This document shows, one piece after another, positions 46,556 to 62,615 of a stretch of DNA of 64,000 bases (its first letter is position 1; every line of letters starts with the position of its first letter). The notes under the pieces were generated by a model. That model was given only the letters and a program-made list of their open reading frames with translations. It was not told where the DNA came from and searched no databases. The stretch is from contig JAFLBF010000014.1 of the NCBI GenBank assembly GCA_017303895.1, positions 3,504 through 67,503 on the forward strand, given 5' to 3'. Both the position numbers and the translations under genes were made by a program. This stretch comes from Bacteroidota bacterium. GTDB taxonomy: Bacteria; Bacteroidota; Bacteroidia; 2-12-FULL-35-15.

Positions 46556-46580
46556 AAAACCTTCCATTTGGAAGGCTTTT
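46556..46580 (-). terminator. Terminator downstream of tRNA-Asp (minus strand).
   Basis: The minus strand reads ccttccaaatggaagg followed by ttttttt. Confidence 0.7.
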
Positions 46581-46581
46581 G

Positions 46582-46655
46582 CGGTCCGGACGGGACTCGA
46601 ACCCGCGACCTCTGCCGTGACAGGGCAGCATTCTAACCAGCTGAACTACCGGACC
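46582..46655 (-). tRNA. tRNA-Asp (anticodon GTC).
   Basis: The reverse complement folds as a 74-nt cloverleaf: GGTCCGG acceptor stem, anticodon arm CTGCC-CTGTCAC-GGCAG, T-loop GGTTCGAGTCC and discriminator G. CCA is not encoded. Confidence 0.9.
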
Positions 46656-46766
46656 TAATTCTGTTAGAATTGGATTGCAAAAGTAGGGTAATTTTTGAAT
46701 TCAGCAAAAAAATAATGAAAAAAATGTGTTACCTAAAATCCGCAAGTCTCATTTTTTGATAAAAAA

Positions 46767-46811
46767 ACGCTCAAAATGCTTGATATTCAAGCTTGTGAGC
46801 GTTTATTTTTT
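46767..46811. terminator. Compound hairpin terminator (bidirectional).
   Basis: The outer stem is acgctca...tgagcgt and the inner stem gcttga-tat-tcaagc. T tracts follow on both strands. It sits after the minus-strand gene ending at 46824. Confidence 0.6.
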
Positions 46812-46823
46812 CGCTAATTATTT

Positions 46824-47006
46824 TTAAATATTTTTTTGAATTTCCATCTGTTCGAATGAATTCAGGATATCCGCCTTCGTTTCGGTAGGCAAATTCGATA
46901 ATATAGCTTCAATTTCTGCCCTTGAAAGGTAGTTTTTGCCTATTTCAAAAAGCTGTTCATCTGGCAATTGGTTTATTAATTCTTCAAATGTAATTTCTAC
47001 TGACAT
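46824..47006 (-). CDS. Small hypothetical protein (60 aa).
   Basis: It is an acidic ORF in the island and is followed by a terminator. No motif was recognised. Confidence 0.35.
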   Translation of the reverse strand: MSVEITFEELINQLPDEQLFEIGKNYLSRAEIEAILSNLPTETKADILNSFEQMEIQKNI

Positions 47007-47036
47007 GGTAATCTGAATTGTTTAATCCCAATGTGC

Positions 47037-47504
47037 TTATAACACACATTTTATTAAATTCATAAATCGAATGGCATCGCCTTTTTTAATTTCAACGTCC
47101 TTTTGGAGATCGCCATCTTTTGAATCTAGTGTAAACCGTTGTGATTGCACCTTGCTTTTCATTAGTTCCATTAAATCCGATTCTTTTATTGGAAATGAGC
47201 CATTGTTTTCTTCTAGAGTAATTATCTTACTATTTTCCAGTAAAAGAAGCATTTTAGAGCCTGATTTTATGGTTCTTCTAACATTAAATGATCCATCACA
47301 AACAAAAATTAACGAATATTCATTGTCTATTTTCTGAATACTTATAAATCCAACGATCTGGTTGGTTTCAAACAATTCTTCTGGTTTTGTCAATTTGGTT
47401 AATTTTCCAGTGAACTTGTCTACATCATTGGTTTTGTACTTACAATTTTGAGAAAAGGTAATAGTTGATAGCAATATCAATATTAAAGCGATTGAATTTT
47501 TCAT
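47037..47504 (-). CDS. Hypothetical secreted protein / lipoprotein.
   Basis: It has a signal peptide (ILILLSTITFSQNC). No motif was recognised. Confidence 0.45.
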   Translation of the reverse strand: MKNSIALILILLSTITFSQNCKYKTNDVDKFTGKLTKLTKPEELFETNQIVGFISIQKIDNEYSLIFVCDGSFNVRRTIKSGSKMLLLLENSKIITLEENNGSFPIKESDLMELMKSKVQSQRFTLDSKDGDLQKDVEIKKGDAIRFMNLIKCVL

Positions 47505-47523
47505 TTATGCTCTTGTTTTATTG

Positions 47524-47922
47524 TTAGTATAATTTCACCGTAGTGCATCCATTTGATGCTATTGTTACAGTTCCAGCCCAAGATAAACTTGTTCCTTGCT
47601 CGTAAGCAGTATAAGCATACGTTCCAGCAGGGGCAGTATATGTTACACAGCCACTTGCCCCACATGATGGAGTTCCTGAATAATTAACCGTTATAGTTCC
47701 CTCTGGCACTCCCTCTACATAAACGTCAACATTACCTAACCCGCTTGTTGTTAGATTCCAAAATGTTGCTTTCCCCTTGTAAGTACAAGTCCCATCATCT
47801 TTTTCTGCTGAAGAAGAGTAATTTGTTGCCGATACATCTGTGCAACCTGTTTCTTTTTTACAACCAATAGTAGCAAATCCTAATAGAATGGAGGCTACAA
47901 GCAATAGTGTTTTTGTTTTCAT
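47524..47922 (-). CDS. Small secreted Cys-rich, Gly/Thr-rich protein.
   Basis: It has a signal peptide plus the lipobox GC. Six Cys residues sit in a 110-aa mature region that is T/G/Y-rich (GTYAYTAYEQGTS). Confidence 0.45.
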   Translation of the reverse strand: MKTKTLLLVASILLGFATIGCKKETGCTDVSATNYSSSAEKDDGTCTYKGKATFWNLTTSGLGNVDVYVEGVPEGTITVNYSGTPSCGASGCVTYTAPAGTYAYTAYEQGTSLSWAGTVTIASNGCTTVKLY

Positions 47923-48038
47923 TTTTAAATTAGTTTAAAAGGTTAGTTTTTATTGACCGTATGGCTAAATTATGAATTATTTCTAAACCCGACAAATATG
48001 TCGTGTTCTTTTTGTTAACTCTTTAGCACTTTTGATAT

Positions 48039-48263
48039 GTGAAAAAGGCATACAAGCAAGAATTAAAGCAATTAGGAAAGAAAATAAAGGCGATTCGGTT
48101 ATCTCAAAAGATGACTCAGGAGGCTCTTGCTGATTTGTGCGAAATTGATGTTAGGACTATTCAGAGGATTGAGAAAGGAGAAAATGGAATAGGTATAAAT
48201 ATTTTGTTTGCAATTAGTGAAGCATTGAAAATTTCTTTGCCTGAATTTTTTAAAAAAGATTAA
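48039..48263 (+). CDS. XRE-family helix-turn-helix transcriptional regulator.
   Basis: MTQEALADLCEIDVRTIQRIEKGE is the canonical HTH_3 motif. It is 74 aa. Confidence 0.8.
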   Translation: MKKAYKQELKQLGKKIKAIRLSQKMTQEALADLCEIDVRTIQRIEKGENGIGINILFAISEALKISLPEFFKKD

Positions 48264-48304
48264 TTGCTTTTATTATAGCATTACCATAGTGCCCAGCAAA
48301 CATG

Positions 48305-49528
48305 TTAAAGAAGGTTCTTGTTATATTCAAGAGAATAGCCCAAAGAATCTGTCCCAGATATCCTTGTTTTGCTAATTATTTGTAATGATTCAGTTGAATG
48401 GATAGCATTGTCTTTGTTAATTTTAATTAGTTTAAAGGCAGAGTTATTTATATATTTCACAAGTAATTTGAATGTGACTTCTCCATCTATGTAATAATAC
48501 CCAGAACTACTGATCTCAATTTTTTCCTTTTTCATTACATTATCTTTTGCGTATGTCAATTCCCATGCCCCATAAAATATAATGGCTAATCTATTTAAGT
48601 TTTCTAATATTTCTTTATTTTGTTTGGATTTTTCTGTTTCAGAATTTACAATTATACCATCTTTTAATTCAATAATTTGACCTTCCAGATATTTCCCCCT
48701 CTTCTTTTGATTTAAATATGAATATTCAATAACTAGCTCTTTTACGGAAAATTTATTCGGATCAAATTTAAAAACCGAATTTTCTATTGCCAAGGGATCA
48801 CCATTACTAAATGCATTTTTAATGATAGACGTTACTTCAATATATTTATTATCAATTCCATAAACTGCATTCTCTATTTTAAAGGCTTTTTTTTCATTCT
48901 CAAAATCATTTAATTCCTTTTCAAGCGTTTTTATTTTTTCACTTTTTTCAAAAAGTTGTTTATCTAGTTGGCTGAATTTAATATTACTATCCTTAATTTC
49001 ATTTTCTTTTTTCTCCAAATCTTTCTTTAATGATGAATTTAGGGCAGCATTTGATTCTAATTTAATCTGCACTTCCTGCAAATCAGCTCTTTTTTGAGTT
49101 ACTTCTTCTTCAATTTTAATGTGTTTTCTTTCAAGCTTTTCATAATCCATTTTTGGAATCCAGTTGCCATCGTCAATTTTTTGAAGTAGTCGAATAGAAC
49201 CTTTATTAATGTATATATATAATCCTTTGCCAAAAGCATTAATCTTATTGAAAAGAATCATCATTATGAATCCCCAGAATAAAGCCCAGACTATTGTAGC
49301 ATAAAATCCTTTGAAACCAAATAGCCACGATAAACATGTAAATGAGTTTAGCTGCAAGTGAACCCAGTCAATTTTTTGTTGTAAACTGTAGTTGTCAGAA
49401 AAATTAAATAATCCAAAAAGGAGGGTTTTATTTGTAATAATCCATACAAAAATTACAGACCCAAAATACGGATTAAGCCTGTTATTAACATAATTACGCA
49501 ATTGATCTTTAACTTCGTCTAACTCCAT
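48305..49528 (-). CDS. Hypothetical membrane protein with a central coiled coil and a C-terminal globular domain.
   Basis: It has two or three N-terminal TM helices and a ~100-aa heptad-rich segment (KIEEEVTQKRADLQEVQIKLESN...). It is divergent from the XRE gene. Confidence 0.45.
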   Translation of the reverse strand: MELDEVKDQLRNYVNNRLNPYFGSVIFVWIITNKTLLFGLFNFSDNYSLQQKIDWVHLQLNSFTCLSWLFGFKGFYATIVWALFWGFIMMILFNKINAFGKGLYIYINKGSIRLLQKIDDGNWIPKMDYEKLERKHIKIEEEVTQKRADLQEVQIKLESNAALNSSLKKDLEKKENEIKDSNIKFSQLDKQLFEKSEKIKTLEKELNDFENEKKAFKIENAVYGIDNKYIEVTSIIKNAFSNGDPLAIENSVFKFDPNKFSVKELVIEYSYLNQKKRGKYLEGQIIELKDGIIVNSETEKSKQNKEILENLNRLAIIFYGAWELTYAKDNVMKKEKIEISSSGYYYIDGEVTFKLLVKYINNSAFKLIKINKDNAIHSTESLQIISKTRISGTDSLGYSLEYNKNLL

Positions 49529-49639
49529 TTTAGAATATGAAATTTATATTAAGCATATAAAATAAAGACAATTTTATCAATTCTTCTAAAAATAGTTTTT
49601 TTTAAGAGAAAACAGATGTTTTTATCGAAATGTATCAGA

Positions 49640-50002
49640 TTAGGCTATGTGATAATGAATGTGAATTGCCAAGTATAGTGTATTTAATGGGTCAAAAACA
49701 CTCTTTACAGGTGGGCTAATTTTTTCTTCTTCATTATAGTATCTATTTATTTCATCAACCAATCTTATCCCCTCTTCATATGAGTTGATTTTAATTTTAG
49801 TGCAATGTGTTGCTAGTTTTTTATAAATGTTATTTTGTGCTTCAAAATACTCATCTGGACTATCCGTAATAACTACTCCCCAGCATTCAGATTTTATGGA
49901 AATTGGTGTATTTGTATTATGACTTCCATCTTTACTCCATCGAATAATAACTCGCCCTTTTCTCTCATTTTCAATTTGATTTATTACATCTATTCCATTC
50001 AT
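49640..50002 (-). CDS. Hypothetical protein (120 aa).
   Basis: It is an ORF in an AT-rich island. No motif was recognised. Confidence 0.35.
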   Translation of the reverse strand: MNGIDVINQIENERKGRVIIRWSKDGSHNTNTPISIKSECWGVVITDSPDEYFEAQNNIYKKLATHCTKIKINSYEEGIRLVDEINRYYNEEEKISPPVKSVFDPLNTLYLAIHIHYHIA

Positions 50003-50171
50003 TTTAGTACTATTTTAGGTTTATTAATTATGATAGTATAATTTTTTTTTAGTTATTTTAGCAAGAAAGATACCAACCTCTTTTCTAAGACTATGTGGCG
50101 CTCTTTATTACATTAAAATGAGAATGTCAGAAATATTTATGACACTCTGACGTTTTGTGTAATATAAAACA

Positions 50172-50387
50172 TCAATCTAATATATGAATCATTACTGAAT
50201 TTTTCGGCAGCTCAAAACTAGGAGTATTTCCGTTTAATGAGCATGGAATTCCATCCTCTCCAGTACAGCCATAAGTATCTTCTGCAAAAAGGTATACAAT
50301 TTCACCTTTAAGAAAATCACGTTTTAACCAACGACATTCTTGCTTGGTAACATCTCGAATTAATTTTAGTTTGATGAGTTGTTTCAT
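50172..50387 (-). CDS. Hypothetical small protein (71 aa). It abuts the transposase stop and may lie within the IS.
   Basis: Its start at 50387 is immediately adjacent to the transposase stop at 50393. It has four Cys residues. Confidence 0.3.
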   Translation of the reverse strand: MKQLIKLKLIRDVTKQECRWLKRDFLKGEIVYLFAEDTYGCTGEDGIPCSLNGNTPSFELPKNSVMIHILD

Positions 50388-50392
50388 TGTTT

Positions 50393-51688
50393 TTAGTTTA
50401 TAGATGGTGGTCTTGCATACAATGGAGAATAATCTCGATCAGAATTGATGCACGCGACCTTTTCATTGTTTTCAAAAGTCCATTCAAGTGAAACGGTTAT
50501 AAAGTTAAATATGAAATTTTTAAGCTTATAATTCGATTTAACAAAATGTAGTTTTTTACTGAAGTGACTTAGTAGGTAATTATAAATAATGTTGCCTATT
50601 GCTCCCATAATCATGAATACCGTATTCTGATTTAAGAAAGAGAAAGGCAGTCGTTTCCAGTTCCAATCATTTAATAGGGTTGTGAAATTTAACTCAATAG
50701 CACCTCGTTGGTTGTAAAATGATATAACCTCTTGGTTAGACATTTTTCTGTTGTTCGTAATAATTGCTCTATAAGTATAGTAGTCGTTTGAATATTTATT
50801 TAGCTTAGTTTGTCTTGAATCCCTTAATTTAGAGACAACAACTCTGTAAGTATTTTCATAGAGATCGTATTCGAACGAATAAGCTTGGCTCGGCATGTCG
50901 CCAATTATAACATTTTCCCAGCCATCTTCACTTTCTAAAGCTTTTCTGAAAATAGCATTGCTGTTTTGTGCGCGAATAAAAAAATCAATTCCCTTTTGAT
51001 TTAAGTACAGTAAAACATTTTTTGAATATGCAGCACTGTCACTTCTAAACCGCTTTATTTTAATTCCTCTCTTTTCAACTATATTAATAGATCTTTCCAG
51101 TGTTTCTAATAGTTGGTAGTTTGCCACAGAATTACCATTTCTGTTTTCAATATAGACAGGTGTTTTCCCTATAAATGCAACTGATGGAAAATAGCCAATA
51201 ACCTCGCTGTACGTTTTTCTGCTGTCATACTTTTCACAAGGGGTTATAACGTTGTCATAATCTAAGGTTGCATTCGAATTTTTATTTAATTGCCCAAGTT
51301 TTAACGCTGTATGAAGCAGTAGCTCGTTTAAAGGTATATTGAGATTTAACTCGTGATCTACTGTTTCTTTGTAATGCTTAGTTACTGGTGTTGCAAAAGA
51401 TTTAAATATGTCAGCAATTCTATCTGGAGAAGGATGTCTATTATTAGGAATTTCCGAAAAATAATGCTTTAGCTGCTTGACATCCTCCAGCCGTTCACTC
51501 CCGCACAATACACTGTATACCCATGATAATATTACATCGCTGTAGCTGTATTTGGCTTGTTTTACTCTTTTTCCTAAGAAATTATCAATTAAACGAGGGA
51601 TTCCTTTTCTCTGCAATTCTTCCATGCAGAAAAGAATACCTCCATAAGGATTGGAAATACGGTTGATATGTCGTATTTTTGTCTTCAC
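50393..51688 (-). CDS. IS1380-family DDE transposase.
   Basis: Family-typical blocks are SVLCGSERLEDVKQL (compare ISEcp1 MLCG...LERLK), FRSDSAAYS (compare FRMDSGYF) and YNQRGAIELNF...LSHF (compare YEKRGNAENYIKE...YNLF). It is 431 aa. Confidence 0.6.
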   Translation of the reverse strand: MKTKIRHINRISNPYGGILFCMEELQRKGIPRLIDNFLGKRVKQAKYSYSDVILSWVYSVLCGSERLEDVKQLKHYFSEIPNNRHPSPDRIADIFKSFATPVTKHYKETVDHELNLNIPLNELLLHTALKLGQLNKNSNATLDYDNVITPCEKYDSRKTYSEVIGYFPSVAFIGKTPVYIENRNGNSVANYQLLETLERSINIVEKRGIKIKRFRSDSAAYSKNVLLYLNQKGIDFFIRAQNSNAIFRKALESEDGWENVIIGDMPSQAYSFEYDLYENTYRVVVSKLRDSRQTKLNKYSNDYYTYRAIITNNRKMSNQEVISFYNQRGAIELNFTTLLNDWNWKRLPFSFLNQNTVFMIMGAIGNIIYNYLLSHFSKKLHFVKSNYKLKNFIFNFITVSLEWTFENNEKVACINSDRDYSPLYARPPSIN

Positions 51689-51904
51689 AATTGCTTAGAG
51701 CATTGGGAATAGCTTTCGGGTTCATGTTTGCGAGACGGAAAACCCTAAAGCTATTTTTCTTTTACATCCTTCTATTTTCGTGCCAAAATATATGTAATTA
51801 ATTGATTTTCAGTTATTTGAATGTCGGTGAGTGTCGAAAAGTCTCCCGAACAAATTGATTTTATTCAGATATAGAAAATGTTCAATTTTTGCTATTTTTT
51901 TATA

Positions 51905-51986
51905 GCTTGATTAATTATTTTTGCAAAAATTCGTATAAAAAAGCTTGAATTAGCTTGAATTAGCTTGAAAATAGCTTGATAAAACT
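51905..51986. repeat. Cluster of agcttga(a/t) iterons.
   Basis: The sequence tagcttgatt ... aagcttgaatt agcttgaatt agcttgaaaat agcttgataaaa gives five copies of agcttga in 80 bp between the IS and the next gene. Confidence 0.6.
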
Positions 51987-52132
51987 TTTATATGTTAGAT
52001 AATATAAATTTAGAAGTGGCTCAACTTGAACAAAAATTAACAATGAGATTAGCCAAAATAGTTATAAAATAAAGCTGTTAATATTTATATTGACATTAAT
52101 GACAATTTATATTTCAAAATCTATTACATTTG

Positions 52133-52534
52133 ATGCGAGCAATTTCCAAAATTAATATGGTAGAGAACGGAACTGAGCAACTTGCCGTTGTGAAAGTAAT
52201 ACAAAGTATGTTAGCTTCACACTACACTGTTGTTTCAAATATAGCCCAAGAACAGCATCATATCGGAGGCTTTTTCCCAGATATTATAGTAATGGATAAA
52301 GATAACGGTAATGCATTATTTGCAATTGAAGTAAGGAAAAATGGGCAAGTAAGCCATTGTATTCAGCAATGGAAATCTGTAACTCCACATTTACCAGCCA
52401 CATTGTATATTGTTGTTCCAGAAGCAGAACTTGAGAATGCACAAGCAATTGCAGCAGTAAACGGTTTAAAAGCTAAATTTGGAACATATAAAATGAAATC
52501 CGATGGGGGAGTAGCTAATGTAAATTTCTTATAA
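52133..52534 (+). CDS. Hypothetical protein, possibly with a PD-(D/E)xK-like fold.
   Basis: FFPDIIVMDKDNGNALFAIEVRKNG resembles a PD...E.(R)K nuclease core. The start may instead be at 52157 (MVENG), because a TACATTTG -7-like box sits at 52125-52132. Confidence 0.35.
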   Translation: MRAISKINMVENGTEQLAVVKVIQSMLASHYTVVSNIAQEQHHIGGFFPDIIVMDKDNGNALFAIEVRKNGQVSHCIQQWKSVTPHLPATLYIVVPEAELENAQAIAAVNGLKAKFGTYKMKSDGGVANVNFL

Positions 52535-52545
52535 GCCACAGATAG

Positions 52546-53016
52546 ATGAATCCCGAAACCCAAAACGTAATACTCGGAGCTGTCCTTGGTGCCCTTTTTG
52601 CAGTAGTTGGTGGAGGAGTAGGTAAAAAAATAGAAATGTGGCTGAATCTTCGACAAGAAAGAAGTTTTATAAAAAAAGGATTGATTGATGAACTTGACGA
52701 AATCATTACTGTAATAGGCAAGCTAAAAGAAACATTTGAACAAACATCTCAAACCCCAAAATCTTATATAATTGATTTAAAGTCAAATATAGAGGCTTAT
52801 AACCACCATAGACATAGACTTTTTGTGCTTCAAGGAGACGATTTAAGGCATAAAATTATTCAATTTTACAGAAAGCTTAAAGATTCACTTGAAGATGCAG
52901 AAGGGAAAGTCGGCACACTTGCAACATCGCCTCAGGCTAAACAGCAACAAAAGGATATTGTCTCCAAAATGGAAAAGTTCGAACAGGACGCAAAAGAATT
53001 AAAGAAGCTCCTTTAG
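52546..53016 (+). CDS. Hypothetical membrane-anchored coiled-coil protein.
   Basis: It has an N-terminal TM helix (VILGAVLGALFAVVGGGVG) and a helical, charged remainder. It lies 12 bp after the preceding gene. Confidence 0.4.
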   Translation: MNPETQNVILGAVLGALFAVVGGGVGKKIEMWLNLRQERSFIKKGLIDELDEIITVIGKLKETFEQTSQTPKSYIIDLKSNIEAYNHHRHRLFVLQGDDLRHKIIQFYRKLKDSLEDAEGKVGTLATSPQAKQQQKDIVSKMEKFEQDAKELKKLL

Positions 53017-53045
53017 TTTTTTATATGATACTATTCATAATTTAA

Positions 53046-53906
53046 TTATTGTGAATTTTTATCGTCTAGCCTGATAACTCCTAAATTTTCAGGAAAAATT
53101 AAGTATTGATCCATGTTTAATGGCATTTTTTCAAAAATAAACCTGTGAGTTGATTCCGAAGAATCTATAATTAATCCATTTTGGATCTGTCTTAATTCAT
53201 TGTTTTTAACTTCAGAATTTTTATGATGCAGATATAGGCAATAGTCTCTTGTTAGTGGAAAATATAATTCAGCTTCTAAAGGAATTAAAAATTCATAATA
53301 TCCGTTATTTTCAATGATAATAGGATTGTCACTTGTAACCCATCCATAGTTATTATAGTCTTTTAGAATGCAGTAGTCAAATTTTTGTAATATATAATTG
53401 AAATGCCGCATCGACATTAGCATCAAATAGTTTAGTCTATCATCAGGTGCAATATTATCAACATGGTAAATAGCACTTTTTTGTGAGTCATTTATAAAAA
53501 AAGCGATTTCTTTAAGTAGCTTTTCTTTAGTCTCAATATTTGTATAGTAATTGTTAATTCTAGTCCTCATCATTTCTGTTCTACATATTGTGTTAGCAAC
53601 AAATTGCTTTAATAGAATTTCAGATTTATGGCTTAGTGATTCTTTTAAATATAGCTCATCAATTATTTTGTTATAGTATGTTTCTAACTGACCATTTAAA
53701 TTTTCAAAAACACTTGGATTAATGGAGGGAATGGTAGACAATTGAAAGAAATGTGGCTTATTTAAAAAGCTAGCTACATTTTTTAAGGCTGTTCTAGGAA
53801 GCCCTTTTTCCCAAACACATAGCTTTAATTGTCCGTTGTAATCGAACGCAAATTTCTTTAGATATACTTCTCCTAATATGTGATGCCTTCTTTTTGATTT
53901 TTGCAT
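53046..53906 (-). CDS. DUF4238 domain protein.
   Basis: The N-terminal RRHHILGEVYLKKF matches the DUF4238 HH.vP..YL..F signature. It is 286 aa. Confidence 0.5.
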   Translation of the reverse strand: MQKSKRRHHILGEVYLKKFAFDYNGQLKLCVWEKGLPRTALKNVASFLNKPHFFQLSTIPSINPSVFENLNGQLETYYNKIIDELYLKESLSHKSEILLKQFVANTICRTEMMRTRINNYYTNIETKEKLLKEIAFFINDSQKSAIYHVDNIAPDDRLNYLMLMSMRHFNYILQKFDYCILKDYNNYGWVTSDNPIIIENNGYYEFLIPLEAELYFPLTRDYCLYLHHKNSEVKNNELRQIQNGLIIDSSESTHRFIFEKMPLNMDQYLIFPENLGVIRLDDKNSQ

Positions 53907-53911
53907 AGATT

Positions 53912-54748
53912 TTAGATTAAGTCAATTATATCTTGTATTTTTTGAATTGAAGTTGGCAGGTATTTATTATCATGTAAAAAGTGGCGAGTTTGTGAATATG
54001 CAGTCCTTATGTTTTTAGTTTGATAGCTTACCCCATCTCTTTTTACGAAAAATTTTTCGATAATGCTGGGGTAGTCATACCCTTTATATTGGGGTTTGTT
54101 ATTCGATAATTTTATGACAAGAAAAACTAATTGTCTTGTTGTGCCAAGCCATTTTATTTTAGAGATATCTAGGAAATTATTCGTTTGAAAAATATAAATA
54201 TTATTTGAGTCAGCATTTAGAAGCTTTAGTTCAACAAGTTTATTAATTATTAATGCTAATTGCTCATGATTAATATGTTCAAACCAATTGCTTTTAAAAC
54301 ATTTGTTTTCCGAATTAACAAACACTCTTTCTCCTTCTACCCATTTCATTATCCTATCCAATCTTTCTGTATTATCAAATGGGCTAGAAGCTTGGACGTA
54401 TTCATAGACATAACCTTCTATGAATGAAGGAAAGTATCCTGCCCCCTTATATTGGGACTTCTGATAGCTTAAAAACGATGTAATTCTGGGTGTTGGGTAT
54501 GCTATAAGTGTAATAGCAAGAAATCGAAGGTAATCTGGATTATCTTGCCTAATTATGATTGAAATAGAAGCTTTGTAATGCTCTTTTAGATTTATCTTGT
54601 TTCTACGACAGTATAAATACAAGGTATCAACCAATTTTTGTCCAAAAGATTTCTGCTTAGCATTAACTTTATTGGAATTGATTACTTGCTCTATATTCTT
54701 CAGTGTTTTAACTAAATCTATATCATATGGTTCACTGTAGATTTGCAT
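53912..54748 (-). CDS. RteC-like regulatory protein (Bacteroidota mobile-element associated).
   Basis: The C-terminal region (KWLGTTRQLVFLVIKL...IIEKFFVKRDGVSYQT..IRTAYSQTRHF) resembles the RteC winged-helix region. It is recalled from memory, so the call is modest. Confidence 0.3.
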   Translation of the reverse strand: MQIYSEPYDIDLVKTLKNIEQVINSNKVNAKQKSFGQKLVDTLYLYCRRNKINLKEHYKASISIIIRQDNPDYLRFLAITLIAYPTPRITSFLSYQKSQYKGAGYFPSFIEGYVYEYVQASSPFDNTERLDRIMKWVEGERVFVNSENKCFKSNWFEHINHEQLALIINKLVELKLLNADSNNIYIFQTNNFLDISKIKWLGTTRQLVFLVIKLSNNKPQYKGYDYPSIIEKFFVKRDGVSYQTKNIRTAYSQTRHFLHDNKYLPTSIQKIQDIIDLI

Positions 54749-54846
54749 TTATTATTAATCATATTTTAGAAAAATAGGGATATATTTGCGATTATTAAAA
54801 GCCCCTGTCATTCGTCAGCATTGTATTTTTGGATAAAATGTCGAAA

Positions 54847-54870
54847 AATTTTGACAATATTGTCAAAATT
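54847..54870. promoter_or_regulatory. 24-bp perfect palindrome, an operator candidate.
   Basis: aattttgacaatattgtcaaaatt is exactly self-complementary. It lies in the divergent intergenic region between 54748 and 55023. Confidence 0.5.
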
Positions 54871-55022
54871 AAGTACATTTGTGGCATAATTGTTATGTAG
54901 ATATGTAACATATATGTAATAATTAGTGTATAAGTAAAGCGGTCAATACCATTTTTTAGCGAAATTGTTATTATAAATTGCTATTTGTATTTTATATTAT
55001 TAAGTACTTATAACACAAAAAA

Positions 55023-55181
55023 ATGAGAACAATAGAGATTAAAACCCAAGTAAAAGATCCTAAAGTGATAGAAATCATTAAGGATGCAAAGGCTAAAAAG
55101 CAAGCTATCCACGCTCTTTTAGTTAGCGGAGTTCCTATATCTGAAATCCCAGAAGAATTAAAAATTTCTTTACAAAAATAG
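55023..55181 (+). CDS. Small ORF (52 aa) not in the supplied track.
   Basis: ATG at 55023 through TAG at 55181 gives MRTIEIKTQVKDPKVIEIIKDAKAKKQAIHALLVSGVPISEIPEELKISLQK. It sits 3 bp before the next ORF. Confidence 0.3.
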   Translation: MRTIEIKTQVKDPKVIEIIKDAKAKKQAIHALLVSGVPISEIPEELKISLQK

Positions 55182-55184
55182 GAA

Positions 55185-55670
55185 ATGTATCATCGTTACG
55201 AGTATTCTGTAACTGATGGGGATGTCCATTCATATAAATTTACTGATTATCCTGTAACATTAATACTGGCGCCAGCTCATTACACATTAAGTGGAATTGA
55301 GCCATCTCTTAACTTATATAGCATAGACCTCCTTCGGACAGGAGATAAGATGAATTGTAATTGTGGAGAAACAGTATGTAAAATTTTAGTCGATTTTGTT
55401 AATAATAATAAGAAATGTTCTTTGGGCTTTTATCCTAGTTATAAAGATAATAAGGAAGACGCAAGGTGCTGCTTGTTTAATAAATGGTTAACTAAATATG
55501 TTTTAGATGAAAATATTACAACAATAAAGAATGTTTTAACTTTTCCGACTGAAACAGGAAAAACTAAAGAGGAGCTAACCCTTCAAGTTTTTATGCACGA
55601 TGAGTATGAATATGGAGACTTGATGCTATCGAATTTAAATGCTATTTCAAAAACAATTGCATCTAAATAG
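55185..55670 (+). CDS. Hypothetical Cys-containing protein (161 aa).
   Basis: It has the Cys cluster NCNCGETVC...KCS...RCC. No family was recognised. Confidence 0.4.
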   Translation: MYHRYEYSVTDGDVHSYKFTDYPVTLILAPAHYTLSGIEPSLNLYSIDLLRTGDKMNCNCGETVCKILVDFVNNNKKCSLGFYPSYKDNKEDARCCLFNKWLTKYVLDENITTIKNVLTFPTETGKTKEELTLQVFMHDEYEYGDLMLSNLNAISKTIASK

Positions 55671-55775
55671 TTTTTCGTTAATAATCCCAAAGGATGCTGT
55701 TTTAGAAAGAGGAATCAGTTATAGGTAGAATTTGTGAAAAATACATGTATTATTCCTTATCAATTATATTAATTG

Positions 55776-55783
55776 TAACTTTG
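55776..55783 (+). promoter_or_regulatory. Bacteroidota-type -7 promoter box (TAACTTTG).
   Basis: It matches TAnnTTTG and lies about 22 to 40 nt upstream of candidate start codons at 55805 and 55823. Confidence 0.4.
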
Positions 55784-55804
55784 TCTATAGTGCTTAATTG
55801 AAAA

Positions 55805-56251
55805 GTGATAAATATTAAAATTATGACACCCGATATTTTTATACCATTCTCTGTTAGATTTTCTTTGAAGATATTTACGCTTCCTAGTGTTGGAAAATTG
55901 CTAGGGAATTTGTTATATAAGATTAAAGACCAATATGTTTTTTTGAATTTTGCTTTAAAGGGGATAAAGGACGAATTAATAAAAAACAAAATTCAAATGA
56001 ACGGGAAGGAGATTAAAAAAATTACTAGTCTTAAAAAACTATTAAGTGTAGTAGGTTCCTCTATAAGTGAGAATGAAAGTCAAAATTTGTTATCAATAAA
56101 GGAAAATGTTATGTCTTCTATTGCTACCATTGATGAAATTCTTTTAATTATTAAAGAAAAAGAAGAACATAAAGAGTTGAAGCAAAATTTATTTAACTAT
56201 TCTGAGCTTGCAATAAATTCTCATTTGACAAAGTATAGTAAAGCAATATGA
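55805..56251 (+). CDS. Hypothetical protein; putative cognate partner (antitoxin?) of the downstream MazF-like gene.
   Basis: It is 148 aa and its stop overlaps the start of the next gene (ATGA at 56248-56251). It bears no resemblance to MazE, AbrB or RHH antitoxins. Confidence 0.4.
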   Translation: MINIKIMTPDIFIPFSVRFSLKIFTLPSVGKLLGNLLYKIKDQYVFLNFALKGIKDELIKNKIQMNGKEIKKITSLKKLLSVVGSSISENESQNLLSIKENVMSSIATIDEILLIIKEKEEHKELKQNLFNYSELAINSHLTKYSKAI

Positions 56252-56607
56252 AGATTAGCAGAAGAGATGTTGTTGAGGTCGTATTCGCTTCTAATACAAA
56301 AGCTAGTCATCCTGTTATTGTTCTTTCACCAGAAGAGATTAATTCAGAAGAAGAGAGCTTTTTGGGAGTTATGATTACAGATTCACTATATTTTGATGTA
56401 AACAATGATTTCAGCTTTCCACTAGACGATTCAATGTTTGTAAAACCTTTAAAGGAAAAGAGTTCAAAAGCGAGACTTTATTTGGTTAATTTTTTGCCTA
56501 ATAGTTCTGTCGTTAATAAGGCTAAAATTAATGAGATGAAAATAGATGCTTTTAAGCAGTTAATAAAAGACTTAAATTTAAAAGTTTTTGATATTAATAT
56601 TTCTTGA
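56248..56607 (+). CDS. MazF/PemK-like toxin-fold protein.
   Basis: MKISRRDVVEVVFASNTKASHPVIVLSPEEIN...GVMITD parallels the PemK/MazF pattern R.GDIv.v.F.p..G.E...RPalVlSp...N.....vivcPiT. Confidence 0.5.
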   Translation: MKISRRDVVEVVFASNTKASHPVIVLSPEEINSEEESFLGVMITDSLYFDVNNDFSFPLDDSMFVKPLKEKSSKARLYLVNFLPNSSVVNKAKINEMKIDAFKQLIKDLNLKVFDINIS

Positions 56608-56654
56608 TTTATCTGCACCATCCCACCTTTCTTTTTTATTTTTATTTCTAATAA

Positions 56655-57629
56655 ATGGACGAAAAAACATTTCATAATTTATCGGATGATGAATTAATTC
56701 ATGGGATGAAATTATCGTTAGAAAATTCGAACAAGCATTTTAAAGCAGCTATTTCAATTGAAAAGGAAGAGCTTTATGGTATTGCTAATTCTCATTTGAT
56801 ATTGAGTTCAGAAGAAGGGATCAAGGCACTCTTATTCCTAACCAAATTTTTAAAAATTGAACTTGAGAATATAGATATCAGTCCGTTTTTCAAGAAGCAT
56901 GCCCCAAAACATAAAGTCGCAAAAGAGGTATATTGGGAATTTAAGTATTACAACCAAATTATGGACTCTGTACTGAAGGAGTTAGCGAGTAAAAAAGATA
57001 AGTACATAACTTTTAAAAATGGAATCCCCTCCCTTGATAATGAAAAATTAAAACAAGATTATGTAAGGGGGCTAGCATTAAATAAAAGGCAATTATTGGT
57101 AAGTCATATTAGAAATAATTGGGAGGTTGAAGAACAAGAACAGAAGTGGTGGAATAAAGCCGATTATTATAAAAATAGAGGTTTCTACGTTAATTTTTAT
57201 AATAGGAAATGGGAATCACCAGATGATATTACTAAAGAAATATATTTTGAAAGTAAAAAAATAGTGACAACAATTGTTGAGTTTATGAATGCATGTTGCA
57301 CAAGACAAGATTTAAATGATATACAAGAAACTTTACCCAGCTTACAGATGCCGACAATAGAACTTCATAGCAAAATATTACCTAGTGGTCATAAATTAGA
57401 TCATATTATTATCACGGAGATTCCAAATGCAGATGGAAGTGATATTGATTATAAAATTGAATATGTGGATTGGACTGATATTGATAAGAAAAGAATTCAT
57501 GTAGGAACTTGTTGTTTGACTTTAGGCAGTATATCTTTTGAAAAGTCAGAACCTGTTGGTATTCCAGTTGGTGCAATTAAATTAGCCTGCGAATGGGTTG
57601 AGCAAAGGATGGGAGAAGAGAGAGTATAG
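56655..57629 (+). CDS. HEPN-domain (AbiV-like) protein with an extra C-terminal domain.
   Basis: The N-terminal helical region is HEPN/AbiV-like (LENSNKHFKAAISIEKEELYGIANSHLILSSEEGIKALLF). The R-x5-H motif is present (KRQLLVSH). It is 324 aa. Confidence 0.35.
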   Translation: MDEKTFHNLSDDELIHGMKLSLENSNKHFKAAISIEKEELYGIANSHLILSSEEGIKALLFLTKFLKIELENIDISPFFKKHAPKHKVAKEVYWEFKYYNQIMDSVLKELASKKDKYITFKNGIPSLDNEKLKQDYVRGLALNKRQLLVSHIRNNWEVEEQEQKWWNKADYYKNRGFYVNFYNRKWESPDDITKEIYFESKKIVTTIVEFMNACCTRQDLNDIQETLPSLQMPTIELHSKILPSGHKLDHIIITEIPNADGSDIDYKIEYVDWTDIDKKRIHVGTCCLTLGSISFEKSEPVGIPVGAIKLACEWVEQRMGEERV

Positions 57630-57652
57630 TTTGTAATTCAATATTATCAATG

Positions 57653-57794
57653 ATTTTAGATTAAAAATTATAATTATGCCAAATTTTGGCAATTAAACAG
57701 CCTGAATTTTACTAGAGATTAAAAATATTGGATTTTTAATTCCAAAACGGGTGATAAAATTAGGTTTTTAGAAGTATTCGGATTTTAGGTGTTT
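57653..57794 (+). repeat. Copy A of a ~142-bp imperfect direct repeat.
   Basis: It aligns with 59406-59549. The first ~75 nt are about 85% identical, the middle diverges and the 3' end shares cggattttaggtgtt. It contains the palindrome tgccaaattttggca. Confidence 0.7.
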
Positions 57795-57863
57795 TGCATC
57801 AAAAATGATGTAAAATAAGCTTTACTTAAATAATTTGGGGAAACCTCATGACACAACAACTCT

Positions 57864-58811
57864 ATGCAACCAGATCCTCTTGACTTTTGGAAAAAATATG
57901 AGTTAGTAAGTAGCTCCCAAACTTATTCTATGGAAAAGAGTAAAAGTAAAATTTGTAGATATTGCGATAAGACAGATAAAGAAACAACTTTTACACAAGA
58001 CACTCATTTACTTCCAGAACTTATAGGCGAGAATAACATCCTTACTTTTGATGAATGTGACAAATGCAACAAATTATTCAGCGATTATGAAAGTAGTTTT
58101 TCAATTTTTATACGACCGTATATTACTCTTATTGGCGTAAAGGGTAAAAAGAAGATTCCTAAGTTTCAGTCTCGGACAATTAATAGAAATGAAGAAACAC
58201 GAACAACTCTCATACACAAAAAAGACAATCAGAAAGAGTTGCATATTCAATCTATTGACGATTATTCGTTAAATACAAAAGATAAAACATTTGACATCGT
58301 TTTTAGAAAACCACCTTTTATCCCTTTGAAAGTGTACAAAACTCTTTTGAAAATAGGATTGTCACTATTACCGATAAAATTTGACAAATTCAACAAAAAT
58401 TCATTTGCTTGGCTTACTAATAGGCAAGATGATTTGACATTTATTCCCCAAGGATTTATAACATCTTTAAAAAGAAGATCTTTCACTGAGCCTTCTGCTT
58501 ATTTATATAGAGCAAAAAAAATATTTATAGGCAAAGAGGAGTTTCCAGAATATATTCTAATTCTCTGTTTTGCAAATCAAATCTTTCAAATTTTCCTGCC
58601 ATTTTCTGACGAGTTTAAAAAGATTCATTTTGAACAACGACAACTTGTTTTAAATCTATTTCCAGCCTTTGTATTTGATAAAATCAAAATGTCACAAATC
58701 GTTGAAATAAAGGCATATGACTTTAGTGTTACAACATCAGTAACTGAGAATCACAAAATTTCATTCAGTTATCAAGATGCTCAAATAAATATTCCCGAGA
58801 AAAATAGCTAA
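57864..58811 (+). CDS. Protein with an N-terminal HNH-nuclease-like zinc-finger motif and an unknown C-terminal domain.
   Basis: CRYCDK...DTHLLPELIGENNILTFDECDKCN fits the HNH pattern C.C...(D)H..P...GG...N....C.CN. About 260 aa of unrecognised sequence follow. Confidence 0.45.
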   Translation: MQPDPLDFWKKYELVSSSQTYSMEKSKSKICRYCDKTDKETTFTQDTHLLPELIGENNILTFDECDKCNKLFSDYESSFSIFIRPYITLIGVKGKKKIPKFQSRTINRNEETRTTLIHKKDNQKELHIQSIDDYSLNTKDKTFDIVFRKPPFIPLKVYKTLLKIGLSLLPIKFDKFNKNSFAWLTNRQDDLTFIPQGFITSLKRRSFTEPSAYLYRAKKIFIGKEEFPEYILILCFANQIFQIFLPFSDEFKKIHFEQRQLVLNLFPAFVFDKIKMSQIVEIKAYDFSVTTSVTENHKISFSYQDAQINIPEKNS

Positions 58812-58825
58812 TCAACAAATAATTA

Positions 58826-59323
58826 ATGAAACATTTTATACTTTATAACCAAATTAAAGACAAGTCAATTGATTCACTTCTGAAAAGAATAGGAAGAAAC
58901 GAGAAAAAAGTCATTTGTGATTTAAAATTCATAGATTTAATTTATGGAAAACAATCAATGAATGGCGTTTATGTGATATTTGACCCATCTGACAAACCCG
59001 CTTATGTTGGAAAAACAGGAAGCAGAGCAATTTTGGAGAGAATGGCAGCTCATTATGATCTTAGACAAAATGCGTTCATGAATTCGTTTTTATGCGCTTT
59101 GGCAGGATTTAAAAAAAGTCGAAGTGGACACCAAGCAACAGATAAAGAAATAAAACAGGCTTACGAGGAATCATTGAAATATAAAATGTTATTTATTGAG
59201 ATTCCAGATAAAGCGATTATAAATAGGCTAGAGAGAATAATTTCTAAGGAATTAAACCCTCCACTTAATAGCATAAAAGGGAAAAATGAATACGATTTAA
59301 ATACAAAAATCAAAAATATTTAA
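58826..59323 (+). CDS. GIY-YIG nuclease domain protein (165 aa).
   Basis: GVYVIFDPSDKPAYVGKTGSRAILER provides the GIY...YIG motif plus Arg. A downstream segment (LFIEIPDKAIINRLERIISKELNPPLN) supplies the Glu and Asn. Confidence 0.55.
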   Translation: MKHFILYNQIKDKSIDSLLKRIGRNEKKVICDLKFIDLIYGKQSMNGVYVIFDPSDKPAYVGKTGSRAILERMAAHYDLRQNAFMNSFLCALAGFKKSRSGHQATDKEIKQAYEESLKYKMLFIEIPDKAIINRLERIISKELNPPLNSIKGKNEYDLNTKIKNI

Positions 59324-59405
59324 AACTAAAAAAATTGAGTGCAAATAGGTTGGAAAAATATAAGTAAAAAGAATAAAAAAAGTCTACAATCCAATGTTAT
59401 CAGTC

Positions 59406-59549
59406 ATTTTAGATTAAAAATTATAATCATGCCAAATTTTGGCAAAAAAACAGCCTAAATCTTACTAAAGTTTTAAAACTAAGAATTTTTAACGTCCGAA
59501 ATGGCTGTTAATATTGAATTTTGAGAGACCTGCGGATTTTAGGTGTTAT
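59406..59549 (+). repeat. Copy B of the ~142-bp imperfect direct repeat.
   Basis: See copy A. It contains atgccaaattttggcaa and ends cggattttaggtgtt. It is located upstream of the gene starting at 59614. Confidence 0.7.
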
Positions 59550-59613
59550 TTATTTGTTTTGCTTGAAAATCAGTCCTTTATTTTGCCTTATTTTTACAAA
59601 AAAATTAAATCTC

Positions 59614-60354
59614 ATGAATTTTGCTTTTGTCGTTATCGGTCTTGTACTCGGTGGTTTGGGTACCCTCATCTGCCTCGTTTTTACTATTATCGCCCTTAGT
59701 GGCGGAAAAACTAAGAATGCTGCTTCCTGGGGAATCGGCTTTGCCGTGTCCATCTCCTTGCTCATTTTTTCTATCGTTAGCCTGGTCAACAGCATTTCCG
59801 ATAAAGTAAAAACCGGTGTGGAATGGTTGGAACAGCATGAAAACCAAACCTATGATGATATGAATGTGGACTATCAGGCACAGGACAGAGCCAACATGAT
59901 CGATACCCTGAAAGCTTATACCAATGAAATGTATGCCGATAAAGTGCCTGCTGATTTTTATTCATCTGCAAAAGTAGAGATCGATTCCAACGGTATCATG
60001 GTGGTTCCTTTCTTGTATCCGTACTCCTTAAGAATAAACACTTACACCAGCCTGGCGGATATTGTGGTGGATGCCAAAGACAGCATGTTTGTACAAAATG
60101 TATCGCAATTCTCCTTCGACCAAAACTTTGTGATCGCCCGCATCGACAATGCACAATCCAAAGATCTGTTGAAAAAAGGTCATGCCGAAATTGAATACCT
60201 GCTATTTGATATGCGTACCGGCAATTATGAAAATGCCAATAATATGGAAATGCTCATGGACTTTGCCAACCGCATTGGTTTTGTGGGTCCCAAAGATTTA
60301 AGATACATTTCAGAAGATTATACCGGCTGGTTTGATTATGAGCAATATGATTAA
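59614..60354 (+). CDS. Hypothetical protein with an N-terminal double-TM anchor.
   Basis: Two TM helices (FAFVVIGLVLGGLGTLICLVFTIIAL, WGIGFAVSISLLIFSIVSLV) precede a ~180-aa soluble domain. The start was set at the ATG at 59614. Confidence 0.45.
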   Translation: MNFAFVVIGLVLGGLGTLICLVFTIIALSGGKTKNAASWGIGFAVSISLLIFSIVSLVNSISDKVKTGVEWLEQHENQTYDDMNVDYQAQDRANMIDTLKAYTNEMYADKVPADFYSSAKVEIDSNGIMVVPFLYPYSLRINTYTSLADIVVDAKDSMFVQNVSQFSFDQNFVIARIDNAQSKDLLKKGHAEIEYLLFDMRTGNYENANNMEMLMDFANRIGFVGPKDLRYISEDYTGWFDYEQYD

Positions 60355-61138
60355 ACAGCTGTTTAAGAATACCTTTCATTCTTCTCAAAGTCATATTCAT
60401 CATCCCGGGAAACCCGATTACAAAGCCATGGCCATTTTGGTGGTGGTGGCACTTTCGCTTTCCCTCATCAAATACTTGGGTGATTTTAAGTTTGCGGTAA
60501 CTTTTCTTTCGCAAATCGGTTTGAATTATACGGCTTTGCAATTGGAAGACTGGTGTACCATTCATCCCAATGCAGGTTTTAACCGCTTGTTCTGGTGGGT
60601 GTCCAACGTGATCGTGTTTTATCTCATCCCGCCTTTTATACTCATTAAGTTTGTTTTTAAGGATGCATTTTCAGCGTATGGTCTTAGCTTAAAAGGAGCT
60701 TTTAAGGATTATAAATTGTACCTCATCATGCTGTTGGTGATGATCCCTTTGGTGCTTTATTTCTCGCGCACACAAAGCTTTCAGCAGCGCTATCCTTTTT
60801 ATGATCTTCAGGAAGGGGAGCCACTGTTCCCCAATTTTATTCTCTGGGAACTCATTTATTTTGTGCAGTTCTTTGCGCTGGAATTTTTCTTTCGTGGCTT
60901 CATGATCCACGGCACCAAGCAGGTGTTCGGTTTTTATTCGGTATTCGTTATGACCATTCCGTATTGTATGATCCACTTCGGAAAACCTTTCCCTGAAACC
61001 ATTGCAGCCATCATTGCGGGTGTGGTGCTGGGTGTGTTGAGTTTAAAAAGCAGAAGTATCTGGATGGGTGTTGCCATTCATTACAGTGTAGCCATCACCA
61101 TGGATCTTTGTTCACTTTATCAAAAAGGAATTCTCTGA
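60332..61138 (+). CDS. CPBP-family (CAAX protease-like) intramembrane metalloprotease.
   Basis: It has multiple TM helices with the EExxxR-like motif LEFFFRGF, FxxxH (MIHFG) and HxxxD (AIHYSVAITMD). It overlaps the previous gene. Alternative starts lie at 60338 and 60347. Confidence 0.6.
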   Translation: MIMSNMIKQLFKNTFHSSQSHIHHPGKPDYKAMAILVVVALSLSLIKYLGDFKFAVTFLSQIGLNYTALQLEDWCTIHPNAGFNRLFWWVSNVIVFYLIPPFILIKFVFKDAFSAYGLSLKGAFKDYKLYLIMLLVMIPLVLYFSRTQSFQQRYPFYDLQEGEPLFPNFILWELIYFVQFFALEFFFRGFMIHGTKQVFGFYSVFVMTIPYCMIHFGKPFPETIAAIIAGVVLGVLSLKSRSIWMGVAIHYSVAITMDLCSLYQKGIL

Positions 61139-62614
61139 TCATTCCATCTCGGCAATAGCAACGAGGATCTTTTCCAGTTTGCGTTTCATCTCGGTAGGAC
61201 TGCACTCATAATTATTGGCCAATACGGAGAATGATAATTGCTCTCCTTTTTTATTCTTTACATAACCGCAATAACCTCTGGCTCCGGTAATGTAACCGCT
61301 CTTGGCTCTTAAATTGTTTTCGGCAACAGTGCCTTCGCACAATCCACCCAATGATCCTGATTTTCCTGCCACCGGCAATGAATTGTAAAAAGGAAGGAAT
61401 GTTTTTTCTTTGGCAATGGCGCGCAATATTTGTGCTTGTGTTTTGGTGGTGATCACATTGGCGCGTGATAAACCACAACCATCGTTCATGGAAAATCCGC
61501 TGATGTCAACACCTTTGGCTTTCCAAAAGCTCTTCACGATCTCAATGCCATCCGTTTCTTTTCCTGCGCCTTTTTTATGATACGCCATGTATTTTAATAA
61601 ATGCTCGGCATACAGATTATCACTTTTCAAATTGGTGTAATACACAATTTTATCGAGCGGAGGCGAGTAGTGGGTATGCAATACTTTTCTATTCGCAAGC
61701 GCATACTCATTCTTGTCTTTTAATTGTTTAACGGTACTTGGTTTTTCGCTGATTTTGATGCCTATATTCTTCAACGCATCGTTTAATGCTTGTGCGCAGA
61801 ATAGGGAAGGATCGGGCAGGGAGCCTTCCACTTCATAATTGGTTTTGTTGGCAGGAATGGTGCCTTCGGCAAATCGTACATTGGAATAAGGCGAGCCATA
61901 GATCACGGCATTGTCGCCTTTGCCACCGGCCGTTACATAATTGTTGAAGATCAAACCTTTTACTTCCGGAAGAATCTTGTTCACCGTAGTGATGCTTCCT
62001 TCGGCTCCTGAATTATAATACACCGTGTATTTATTATCATTATAAGTCAAACCATTGGCACCCGCTCCGAAATAGTTGCCCATATCTCCCCAGATCCATT
62101 GCCCTGGCACCATATTGTCCTCAAAGATGCTTGCATCGGCAATCACCGCGCCATCAATTTGTTTGATGCCTTTTTGCTTCAGTATAGCAGCCCATTTTTC
62201 TACGGTTGTTAAACTGTCTTTTTTATCCTTGAAATATCCGGAGCCCAAGCTGGGATCACCACCACCCACAATATAGAGATTACCTTTGATGATGCCTTTG
62301 ATAGAATCGAAAGTGCCATCGTAGGAAAGTTTAGTCGTGAATTTAAAGTTAGCACCCAGCATTTCCAGTGCTGCGCCTGTGGTCACAATTTTCATGGTGC
62401 TGGCAGGCACCACACTTACTTGACTGTTATATTCTGCAACAACCGAATCTTTTGAATTGATCACACATACACTCCACACGGCATGTTTCAGGGCAGGATC
62501 ATTCTTGAGTGTATTGATCTCTTGCTTTAGTTTGTTTTGTGCAAACAGGTTGTCTGTTCTACCAATGATGAACAGTGATAGAAGCACTAAAAAGATATGT
62601 GACTGTTTTTTCAA
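61139..62614 (-). CDS. dacB: D-alanyl-D-alanine carboxypeptidase/endopeptidase (PBP4, peptidase S13).
   Basis: It has a signal peptide, an STMK SxxK active site (PASTMKIVT), an SDN motif (LKSDNLYAE) and a KSG motif (GKSGSLGG). Confidence 0.85.
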   Translation of the reverse strand: MKKQSHIFLVLLSLFIIGRTDNLFAQNKLKQEINTLKNDPALKHAVWSVCVINSKDSVVAEYNSQVSVVPASTMKIVTTGAALEMLGANFKFTTKLSYDGTFDSIKGIIKGNLYIVGGGDPSLGSGYFKDKKDSLTTVEKWAAILKQKGIKQIDGAVIADASIFEDNMVPGQWIWGDMGNYFGAGANGLTYNDNKYTVYYNSGAEGSITTVNKILPEVKGLIFNNYVTAGGKGDNAVIYGSPYSNVRFAEGTIPANKTNYEVEGSLPDPSLFCAQALNDALKNIGIKISEKPSTVKQLKDKNEYALANRKVLHTHYSPPLDKIVYYTNLKSDNLYAEHLLKYMAYHKKGAGKETDGIEIVKSFWKAKGVDISGFSMNDGCGLSRANVITTKTQAQILRAIAKEKTFLPFYNSLPVAGKSGSLGGLCEGTVAENNLRAKSGYITGARGYCGYVKNKKGEQLSFSVLANNYECSPTEMKRKLEKILVAIAEME

Positions 62615-62615
62615 A

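Follow-up and report, generated by a model that had tools for sequence, protein, structure and literature searches.

A palindrome-bearing intergenic repeat beside a Bacteroidota tRNA-Asp gene is very probably the end segment of an IS1380-family cargo transposon

The window analysed here, a 64,000-nucleotide stretch of a Bacteroidota genome, holds two similar intergenic sequences in the same orientation, each containing a palindrome, each closing with the same short motif and each lying directly upstream of a gene start. The question raised by this pair is whether it is a duplicated promoter/operator module, the scar of a cassette or a site for cassette exchange, the three options put forward in an earlier note on this DNA. 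The cassette idea held up in part, the promoter/operator option found no positive support and a dedicated recombination site was not borne out. Our analysis indicates that the downstream copy (B) is very probably one end of a 12.8-kb cargo transposon of the IS1380 family and the upstream copy (A) an internal copy of that end, the two-gene module between them having been gained or lost by recombination between the repeats. Relatives without the module do carry a single hybrid repeat, but the primary identity of the repeat as an IS1380-family transposon end had been missed.

Both copies are where they had been placed: their 40-nt start matches at 57653 and 59406 only in the 64-kb window (none expected by chance), the 15-nt 3' motif CGGATTTTAGGTGTT has its sole matches in the window at 57779 and 59533, and the gene starts at 57864 and 59614 lie downstream as described. 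The unit is longer than the roughly 142 bp first assigned to it. Repeat searches and alignments place the start of the homology 25 nt earlier (57628 and 59381), giving 162 and 163 nt, and its end at ...GGATTTTAGG (57789 and 59543), after which TGTT follows in each copy. The aligned copies are 78-79% identical across the whole unit. This identity is uneven. A 40-nt core, the longest identical stretch of the unit (22 + 17 nt), reaches 97.5%, against 72% for the 25 nt at the start and 71% for the final 98 nt, and the middle of about 50 nt that had been called divergent is still alignable at 65-75% identity. The palindrome TGCCAAATTTTGGCA, earlier described as exactly self-complementary, consists of two perfect 7-nt arms with a T between them and is one base different from its reverse complement. 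Its arms are kept in all three versions of the repeat (A, B and that of the sister elements described below) while the central base flips, a pattern that hints at protein binding. Homology between A and B before the unit or past the tip was not significant (p about 0.05 each), and we therefore do not claim that chromosomal flank was duplicated along with it. A known structured RNA was considered and rejected, as no Rfam covariance model matches the repeat: in a search of 44000-64000 the tRNA-Asp was the sole match above gathering score, two further listed matches (E about 0.5) fall outside the repeats, and folding the A/B consensus as RNA, for either strand, gave weak structures with at most one compensatory pair.

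The 3' end is common to both copies, as had been observed, but a third and inverted copy of it, upstream of the tRNA-Asp gene at 46732-46750 and matching at 18 of 19 positions, had been overlooked. The sequences CCTAAAATCCGCAAGTCTC (46732-46750) and CCTAAAATCCGCAGGTCTC (59525-59543) thus stand as terminal inverted repeats (18/19 positions; none expected by chance), with CCTAAAATCCGCA(A/G)GTCTC inverted at 46732 and 59543. The empty site is supplied by a related metagenome-assembled genome (MAG), L002 (JAEUTU010000026.1), which is otherwise collinear with the window. There the tRNA-Asp promoter region runs through a single TGTTA (...aaatgTGTTAtttatttg...) into the upstream region of the gene for the 246-aa protein. 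The window flanks are 93-99% identical to L002, and 98.7-98.9% beside the junction, and BLAST places the two flanks on L002 with an overlap at 9930-9935. From the inverted ends and this empty site the insert is therefore delimited as 46732-59543, with 19-nt terminal inverted repeats (CC...GG) and a 5-bp target site duplication. Since the shared 3' motif is the inverted terminal repeat of the insert, where the transposase would act, copy B is the functional end upstream of the transposase. The coordinates are collected in Table 1.

Table 1. Features of the insertion and its surroundings in the window (IR, inverted repeat; IRL and IRR, transposase-upstream and transposase-downstream ends; TSD, target site duplication).
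Feature	Position	Strand	Evidence or remark
tRNA-Asp (GTC), chromosomal	46581..46655	-	ARAGORN; Rfam tRNA 68.8 bits
Left TSD, TGTTA	46727..46731	.	single TGTTA in the L002 empty site
Whole inserted element	46732..59543	- (strand of transposase)	12,812 bp IS1380-family cargo transposon (very probable assignment), bounded by IRs and TSD
IRR, transposase-downstream end, CCTAAAATCCGCAAGTCTC	46732..46750	+	same 18-mer ends L003, L006, L095 and 80 metagenome loci
IRR-side backbone module	46732..48264	.	small ORFs, 155-aa and 132-aa ORFs, XRE-type HTH gene
XRE-type HTH gene	48039-48263		in IRR-side module; Pfam HTH_3 1.3e-14
IS1380-family DDE transposase	50393..51688	-	NCBIfam NF033539 181.5 bits (cut-off 180); Pfam DDE_Tnp_1_4 PF13701
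AbiV-type HEPN abortive-infection gene	56655..57629	+	Pfam HEPN_AbiV 4.3e-17; TIGR04498
Copy A	57628..57789	+	162 nt, internal; decayed IR tip 57771-57789, 14/19 positions matching the IR
Palindrome TGCCAAA-T-TTTGGCA, copy A	57677..57691	.	within 40-nt core
HNH_5-like gene	57864..58811	+	Pfam HNH_5 26.9 bits, just under cut-off
GIY-YIG-like gene	58826..59323	+	GIY_YIG_2 and GIY-YIG weak matches, both below cut-offs
Copy B	59381..59543	+	163 nt; transposase-upstream (IRL) end; IR tip GAGACCTGCGGATTTTAGG at 59525-59543
Palindrome, copy B	59430..59444	.	from sequence
Right TSD, TGTTA	59544..59548	.	flanks the insert on the other side
Chromosomal gene, 246 aa	59614..60354	+	downstream of insertion; own upstream region unchanged in empty site

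The insertion lies between the divergent promoters of the tRNA-Asp and the chromosomal gene, with its tip 77 nt upstream of the 5' end of the tRNA and TGTTA duplicated. The G+C content of the insert is 28-34% against 37-43% outside, and the inverted repeats coincide with the edges of this low-G+C block. The junction of copy B with the chromosome was confirmed in an independent assembly (L001), and the AbiV/copy A/HNH junction is read from one MAG assembly. The TGTTA site (L097 2104-2133, window 59525-59555, L002 9915-9950) carries an insertion in two relatives whose flanks are about 95% identical, whereas a third, about 93% identical, has it empty; this may reflect either an old insertion with later remodelling of its cargo or repeated use of a preferred target. 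A variable region is also present 3' of the tRNA-Asp gene, where the window (45196-46547) holds a 389-aa low-G+C coiled-coil ORF and L002 (3486-9750) about 6.3 kb of different DNA, the genes further out being collinear. DNA on both sides of the tRNA-Asp is thus variable, by different mechanisms.

An IS1380-type transposase is the sole transposition gene inside the insert, and tblastn matched it to IS942/IS1380 transposases of Bacteroides. The element shows the features that define the IS1380 family, namely the family transposase, CC...GG terminal inverted repeats and a 4-5 bp duplication with a single-copy empty site. The element is not a simple insertion sequence of about 1.6-2 kb carrying a transposase alone, having 12,812 bp and about 20 ORFs. 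No inverted repeat is found near the transposase gene, and the only sites in the window resembling the inverted repeat are at 46732, 57771 and 59525. The transposase module (window 50357-51761) is 66.6% identical at the nucleotide level, over the aligned block, to its closest relative (L005 149-1552); it includes a leader of about 75 nt upstream that the two have in common, and the homology stops abruptly at the module edges in both, as if this were one exchangeable block. About 250 nt upstream of the transposase gene there is a tandem array of AGCTTGAATT (3.7 copies, 51942-51979), and an extra copy of AGCTTGAAT (46785-46793), a short way in from the IRR end, lies within a hairpin with a T-run after it. 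The array and the extra copy could be protein-binding sites of the element.

The cargo includes genes for an AbiV protein (HEPN), a PemK/MazF toxin, a DUF4238 protein, an XRE-type HTH protein and the HNH_5-like and GIY-YIG-like proteins, and on account of these genes and its 12,812-bp length we classify the element as a cargo transposon and not a plain insertion sequence. The AbiV stop codon abuts copy A. PADLOC assigned none of ten cargo proteins to a known defence system and gave a weak UzuA-like match for the GIY-YIG protein. Exact-protein look-ups found no record of the HNH, AbiV or transposase proteins, and the literature searched, a limited collection, described no IS1380-type defence-cargo transposon. 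Homologues of the HNH_5-like gene (72-77% nucleotide identity; L088-L094) occur singly in other mobile elements, with no copy of the repeat, and adjoin integrases, a CoiA-like nuclease or a putative AbiC; none of these loci has the GIY-YIG partner. The notion that the repeat belongs to an HNH cassette found elsewhere was rejected, these homologues being solo and the homology stopping at the ORF.

The 18-nt end sequence CCTAAAATCCGCAAGTCT is found in many other elements. In L003 it follows a transposase (58% identical) at a distance of 2.2 kb, in L006 it precedes one (56% identical) by 1.5 kb, and other genes lie between in each case; an exact-match scan of JGI metagenomes gave 80 loci (L008-L087). 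These include complete insertion sequences of 1.61-1.64 kb, with both inverted repeats and an IS1380-type transposase, and miniature inverted-repeat elements (MITEs) of 127-175 bp; canonical insertion sequences and MITEs have 4-5 bp duplications. Many of them sit within palindromic targets, for example CCCGAT-AGCT-ATCGGG. The transposases of the 1.61-1.64 kb insertion sequences are 32-36% identical to that of the window. One 18-nt end is therefore common to plain insertion sequences, MITEs and cargo elements whose transposases are about a third identical, and it can serve as a convenient marker in searches for elements of this kind. Different elements have unrelated ends past those 18-19 nt, so that a likeness extending over 163 nt, as between A and B, is particular to this element lineage. 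The interior of the repeat showed no similarity to the vestigial IRL or transposase leader of canonical insertion sequences (z below 1.2). Viral contigs scanned for exact matches to the palindrome core and the inverted repeat gave none, and a metagenome scan for the palindrome plus tip gave no hits; no further element with the 163-nt repeat was found in JGI metagenomes or viral contigs, and the sample amounts to three elements. Pairs of MITEs with these ends in direct orientation flank 1.05-1.3 kb in L043 (209-349/1400-1540) and L046 (4401-4600/5845-6044); in L046 the pair flanks a 388-aa lipoprotein-like ORF, and about 70 nt of the left flank is duplicated along with the MITE. These pairs are a possible parallel to A and B.

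The history of the pair was approached through sister sequences in Logan assemblies, two from one sample (L095 and L096, SRR22387820) and one from another (L097, SRR26424858). L095 is 97.9% identical to window 48264-46729 over 1,536 bp, covering the HTH gene, two ORFs and the IRR, and beyond this has a different flank and different inner cargo. L096 has an 80%-identical AbiV gene, then one repeat, then the IRL tip. As the flanks of L095 and L096 share TATTT beside the tips, the two are taken as the ends of one sister insertion at another site, evidence that the element is mobile. L097 is a sister at the chromosomal junction of the window, where ...GGATTTTAGG is joined directly to TGTTAtttatttg and followed by the 246-aa gene and an Rce1-like gene, with a flank 95.1% identical to that of the window. 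It too runs from an 80%-identical AbiV gene through one repeat to the tip, and the HNH gene, the GIY-YIG gene and a second repeat are all absent. Comparison with relatives lacking the cassette, which had been suggested as a way to find out whether a single copy marks the site without it, thus gave a clear outcome in both L096 and L097: a single repeat marks the module-less state.

This single repeat is identical in L096 and L097 and 91.4% identical to copy B. Its first 25 nt are closer to A (92%, and 80% to B), while its last 98 nt are closer to B (94.9%, and 71.4% to A). At the sites where A and B differ, it is A-like at 5 of 7 on the left, those seven being the only informative sites on that side of the breakpoint, and B-like at 26 of 28 on the right (Fisher p=0.0012). 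The switch is bracketed by alignment columns 55 and 96, which places it within the 40-nt core or next to it. Within the core A and B are 97.5% identical and either is 87.5-90% identical to the sister, and this greater likeness of A and B may be due to gene conversion or functional constraint and not to the crossover. The excess of the window over the sisters, 1,753 bp, consists of the 3' part of A, the HNH and GIY-YIG genes and the 5' part of B. Because the sister repeat is a hybrid, with A on its left and B on its right, this 1,753-bp module is interpreted as an insertion or deletion by recombination between the repeats. Identities between the window and the sisters differ by segment, at 67-90% for AbiV, 98% for the IRR module and about 95% for the 3' part of the repeat and the flank, so that the elements are mosaics in which segments have been exchanged repeatedly and not simple parent and offspring.

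These observations suggest the following course of events. Copy A would be a second, internal copy of the transposon end segment, whose tip has decayed. The two direct repeats would bracket the 1.75-kb HNH-like and GIY-YIG-like module and make it present or absent among sisters by recombining with each other, crossing over within or next to the palindrome-bearing 40-nt core, where they are nearly identical. The module may have been gained, if a circle with one repeat and the two genes integrated into a single-repeat element, or lost, if it was deleted from a two-repeat element. Integration and deletion would each give the observed repeat pattern, and from the sequences we infer recombination of repeat against repeat. 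The crossover was most likely ordinary homologous recombination. The two-repeat state itself arose most plausibly by nested or adjacent insertion of two sister elements, after which the outer ends would have been used. The IS1380-family elements ISEcp1 and ISPme1 capture adjacent DNA by misrecognising an end (PMC9330008); end-skipping of this kind, together with the decayed tip of A (14/19), would fit such an origin.

Other readings of the repeat have to be set against this evidence. In a regulatory one, a promoter and operator would have been duplicated to drive the HNH gene from A and the chromosomal gene from B, with the palindrome binding a dimeric regulator such as the XRE-type HTH protein of the element. 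Each copy is indeed 70-75 nt upstream of a start codon, the retained palindrome arms and the high conservation of the core would suit a binding site, and IS1380-family elements carry outward-facing promoters (PMC9330008). However, a scan for the Bacteroidota promoter pattern (TTTG at -33, TAnnTTTG at -7), which finds the tRNA-Asp promoter at 46678-46708, gave no match in or after either copy, and sigma-70-like matches are no commoner than in shuffled sequence; the only one conserved between A and B points inward and loses the T of its -10 in the sister, where it becomes TAAAAC. No similar palindrome lies near the HTH gene, and copy B is not needed for the chromosomal gene, because the native upstream region of that gene is present in the empty site. 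Promoter and regulator taken together, this reading is unlikely, although it is compatible with the repeat being a transposon end. Even less can be said for the repeat as an ordinary dispersed intergenic repeat, which the earlier note had named as its refutation, or as the tRNA-linked att site of an integrase-type island. The island does abut a tRNA-Asp gene and is low in G+C, but there are two copies in the window and the metagenome and viral-contig searches gave no match apart from sister elements, the element is on the 5' (promoter) side of the tRNA, with no shared tRNA sequence and no integrase, and its boundaries are inverted repeats with a 5-bp duplication. We regard either form of this explanation as extremely improbable. 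The absence of any repeated tRNA sequence agrees with the earlier judgement that this is not a tRNA-derived att site, and a tRNA-linked integrative island was rejected on the same grounds, namely insertion upstream of the tRNA, no tRNA-derived repeats and no integrase.

The core and its palindrome might also be a dedicated site-specific recombination site, like attC/attI or dif, at which circular cassettes dock. Direct repeats flanking a module, a hybrid breakpoint that maps to the core, and a core nearly identical between copies that agree at about 72% elsewhere would all fit this, but a breakpoint in the longest identical stretch is equally predicted by homologous recombination. Pfam and NCBIfam searches of 20 ORFs in the island region revealed no tyrosine or serine recombinase domain, and the known cases amount to one module and three elements. 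Usual recombination core sites have arms with a 6-8 bp spacer, unlike the 7-nt arms of this palindrome, which are separated by one base. We hold such a site to be quite improbable. The same low probability attaches to a broader proposal, that the 163-nt end segment is a docking site whose palindromic core binds a factor encoded by the host or by the element, perhaps either nuclease or the transposase, and at which circular modules of defence genes are inserted and excised; if true, defence transposons of the IS1380 type would have at one end a slot for cassettes, much as integrons do. There is, finally, the idea that the 163-nt unit is a MITE of this insertion sequence group that inserted twice in the same orientation, with the outer inverted repeat of B serving the large element. 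MITEs of 127-175 bp with these ends are common, direct pairs occur in L043 and L046, and the inner edge of B reads TCTACAATCC where the inverted repeat has CCTAAAATCC. That inner-edge match, however, covers 10 of 18 positions in B and 8 of 18 in A, no more than chance would give with the positions allowed; neither copy alone is flanked by a target duplication, the interior of the unit matches none of the MITEs of the group, and the sisters have the unit only at the tip. The idea of a double MITE insertion accordingly seems very improbable.

The preferred reading, a cargo transposon with a duplicated end, has counterparts among described systems. Like the modules mobilised by ISEcp1 and ISPme1, the window element has an IS1380-family transposase, CC...GG ends and 4-5 bp duplications, carries genes other than those for transposition between its ends and is flanked as a whole unit by a single TGTTA duplication; it also retains an old end inside, next to captured DNA, as happens when an element skips its own end (PMC9330008). 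It differs from them in that its transposase has no adjacent inverted repeat and has cargo on both sides (3.6 kb and 7.8 kb), its two outer ends are true inverted repeats and not weak look-alikes, and its second end is a 163-nt homologue and not a chance sequence resembling the inverted repeat. ISEcp1 and ISPme1 capture downstream DNA, whereas the duplicated end here is on the transposase-upstream side, and the cargo here consists of defence and toxin genes in a Bacteroidota MAG. A transposable module (TMo) of the ISEcp1/ISPme1 type was rejected as a description of the element, there being no intact insertion sequence with both of its own inverted repeats and no weak surrogate end, and the inner end (A) being upstream. 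A module between direct repeats, with a module-less relative carrying a hybrid repeat, recalls IS26 translocatable units and deletions between IS pairs, but the repeats here are 163-nt end segments, 78% identical with a 40-nt core, and not whole insertion sequences. The small module at a fixed place in a mobile platform, with palindrome-containing repeats, resembles integron cassettes (attI/attC), although the window element has no IntI-type integrase, its repeats are homologous over 163 nt and there is one module. MITE-bounded composites, for example the TIMEs of the Tn3 family (PMC4133298), likewise have short non-coding elements with IS ends flanking a mobilisable segment; the window unit, unlike these, has a convincing inverted repeat at one edge only.

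The element is very probably an IS1380-derived defence-cargo transposon with repeat-mediated insertion or deletion of a module at its upstream end, and the processes underlying it are known ones. An intergenic repeat that looked like an operator is thereby explained as a transposon end, and a complete IS1380-type transposon of 12.8 kb is defined, for which the site without the insert is known, as are a sister copy inserted elsewhere and a sister lacking one module. For annotation, the lesson is that palindrome-bearing repeats beside genes should be compared with the far boundary of the island before they are called regulatory. For uncultured Bacteroidota, the locus offers a concrete route by which abortive-infection, toxin and nuclease genes may be packaged and reshuffled. 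It would operate at two levels, the whole package moving by transposition and single modules being gained or lost by recombination at the repeated end segment.
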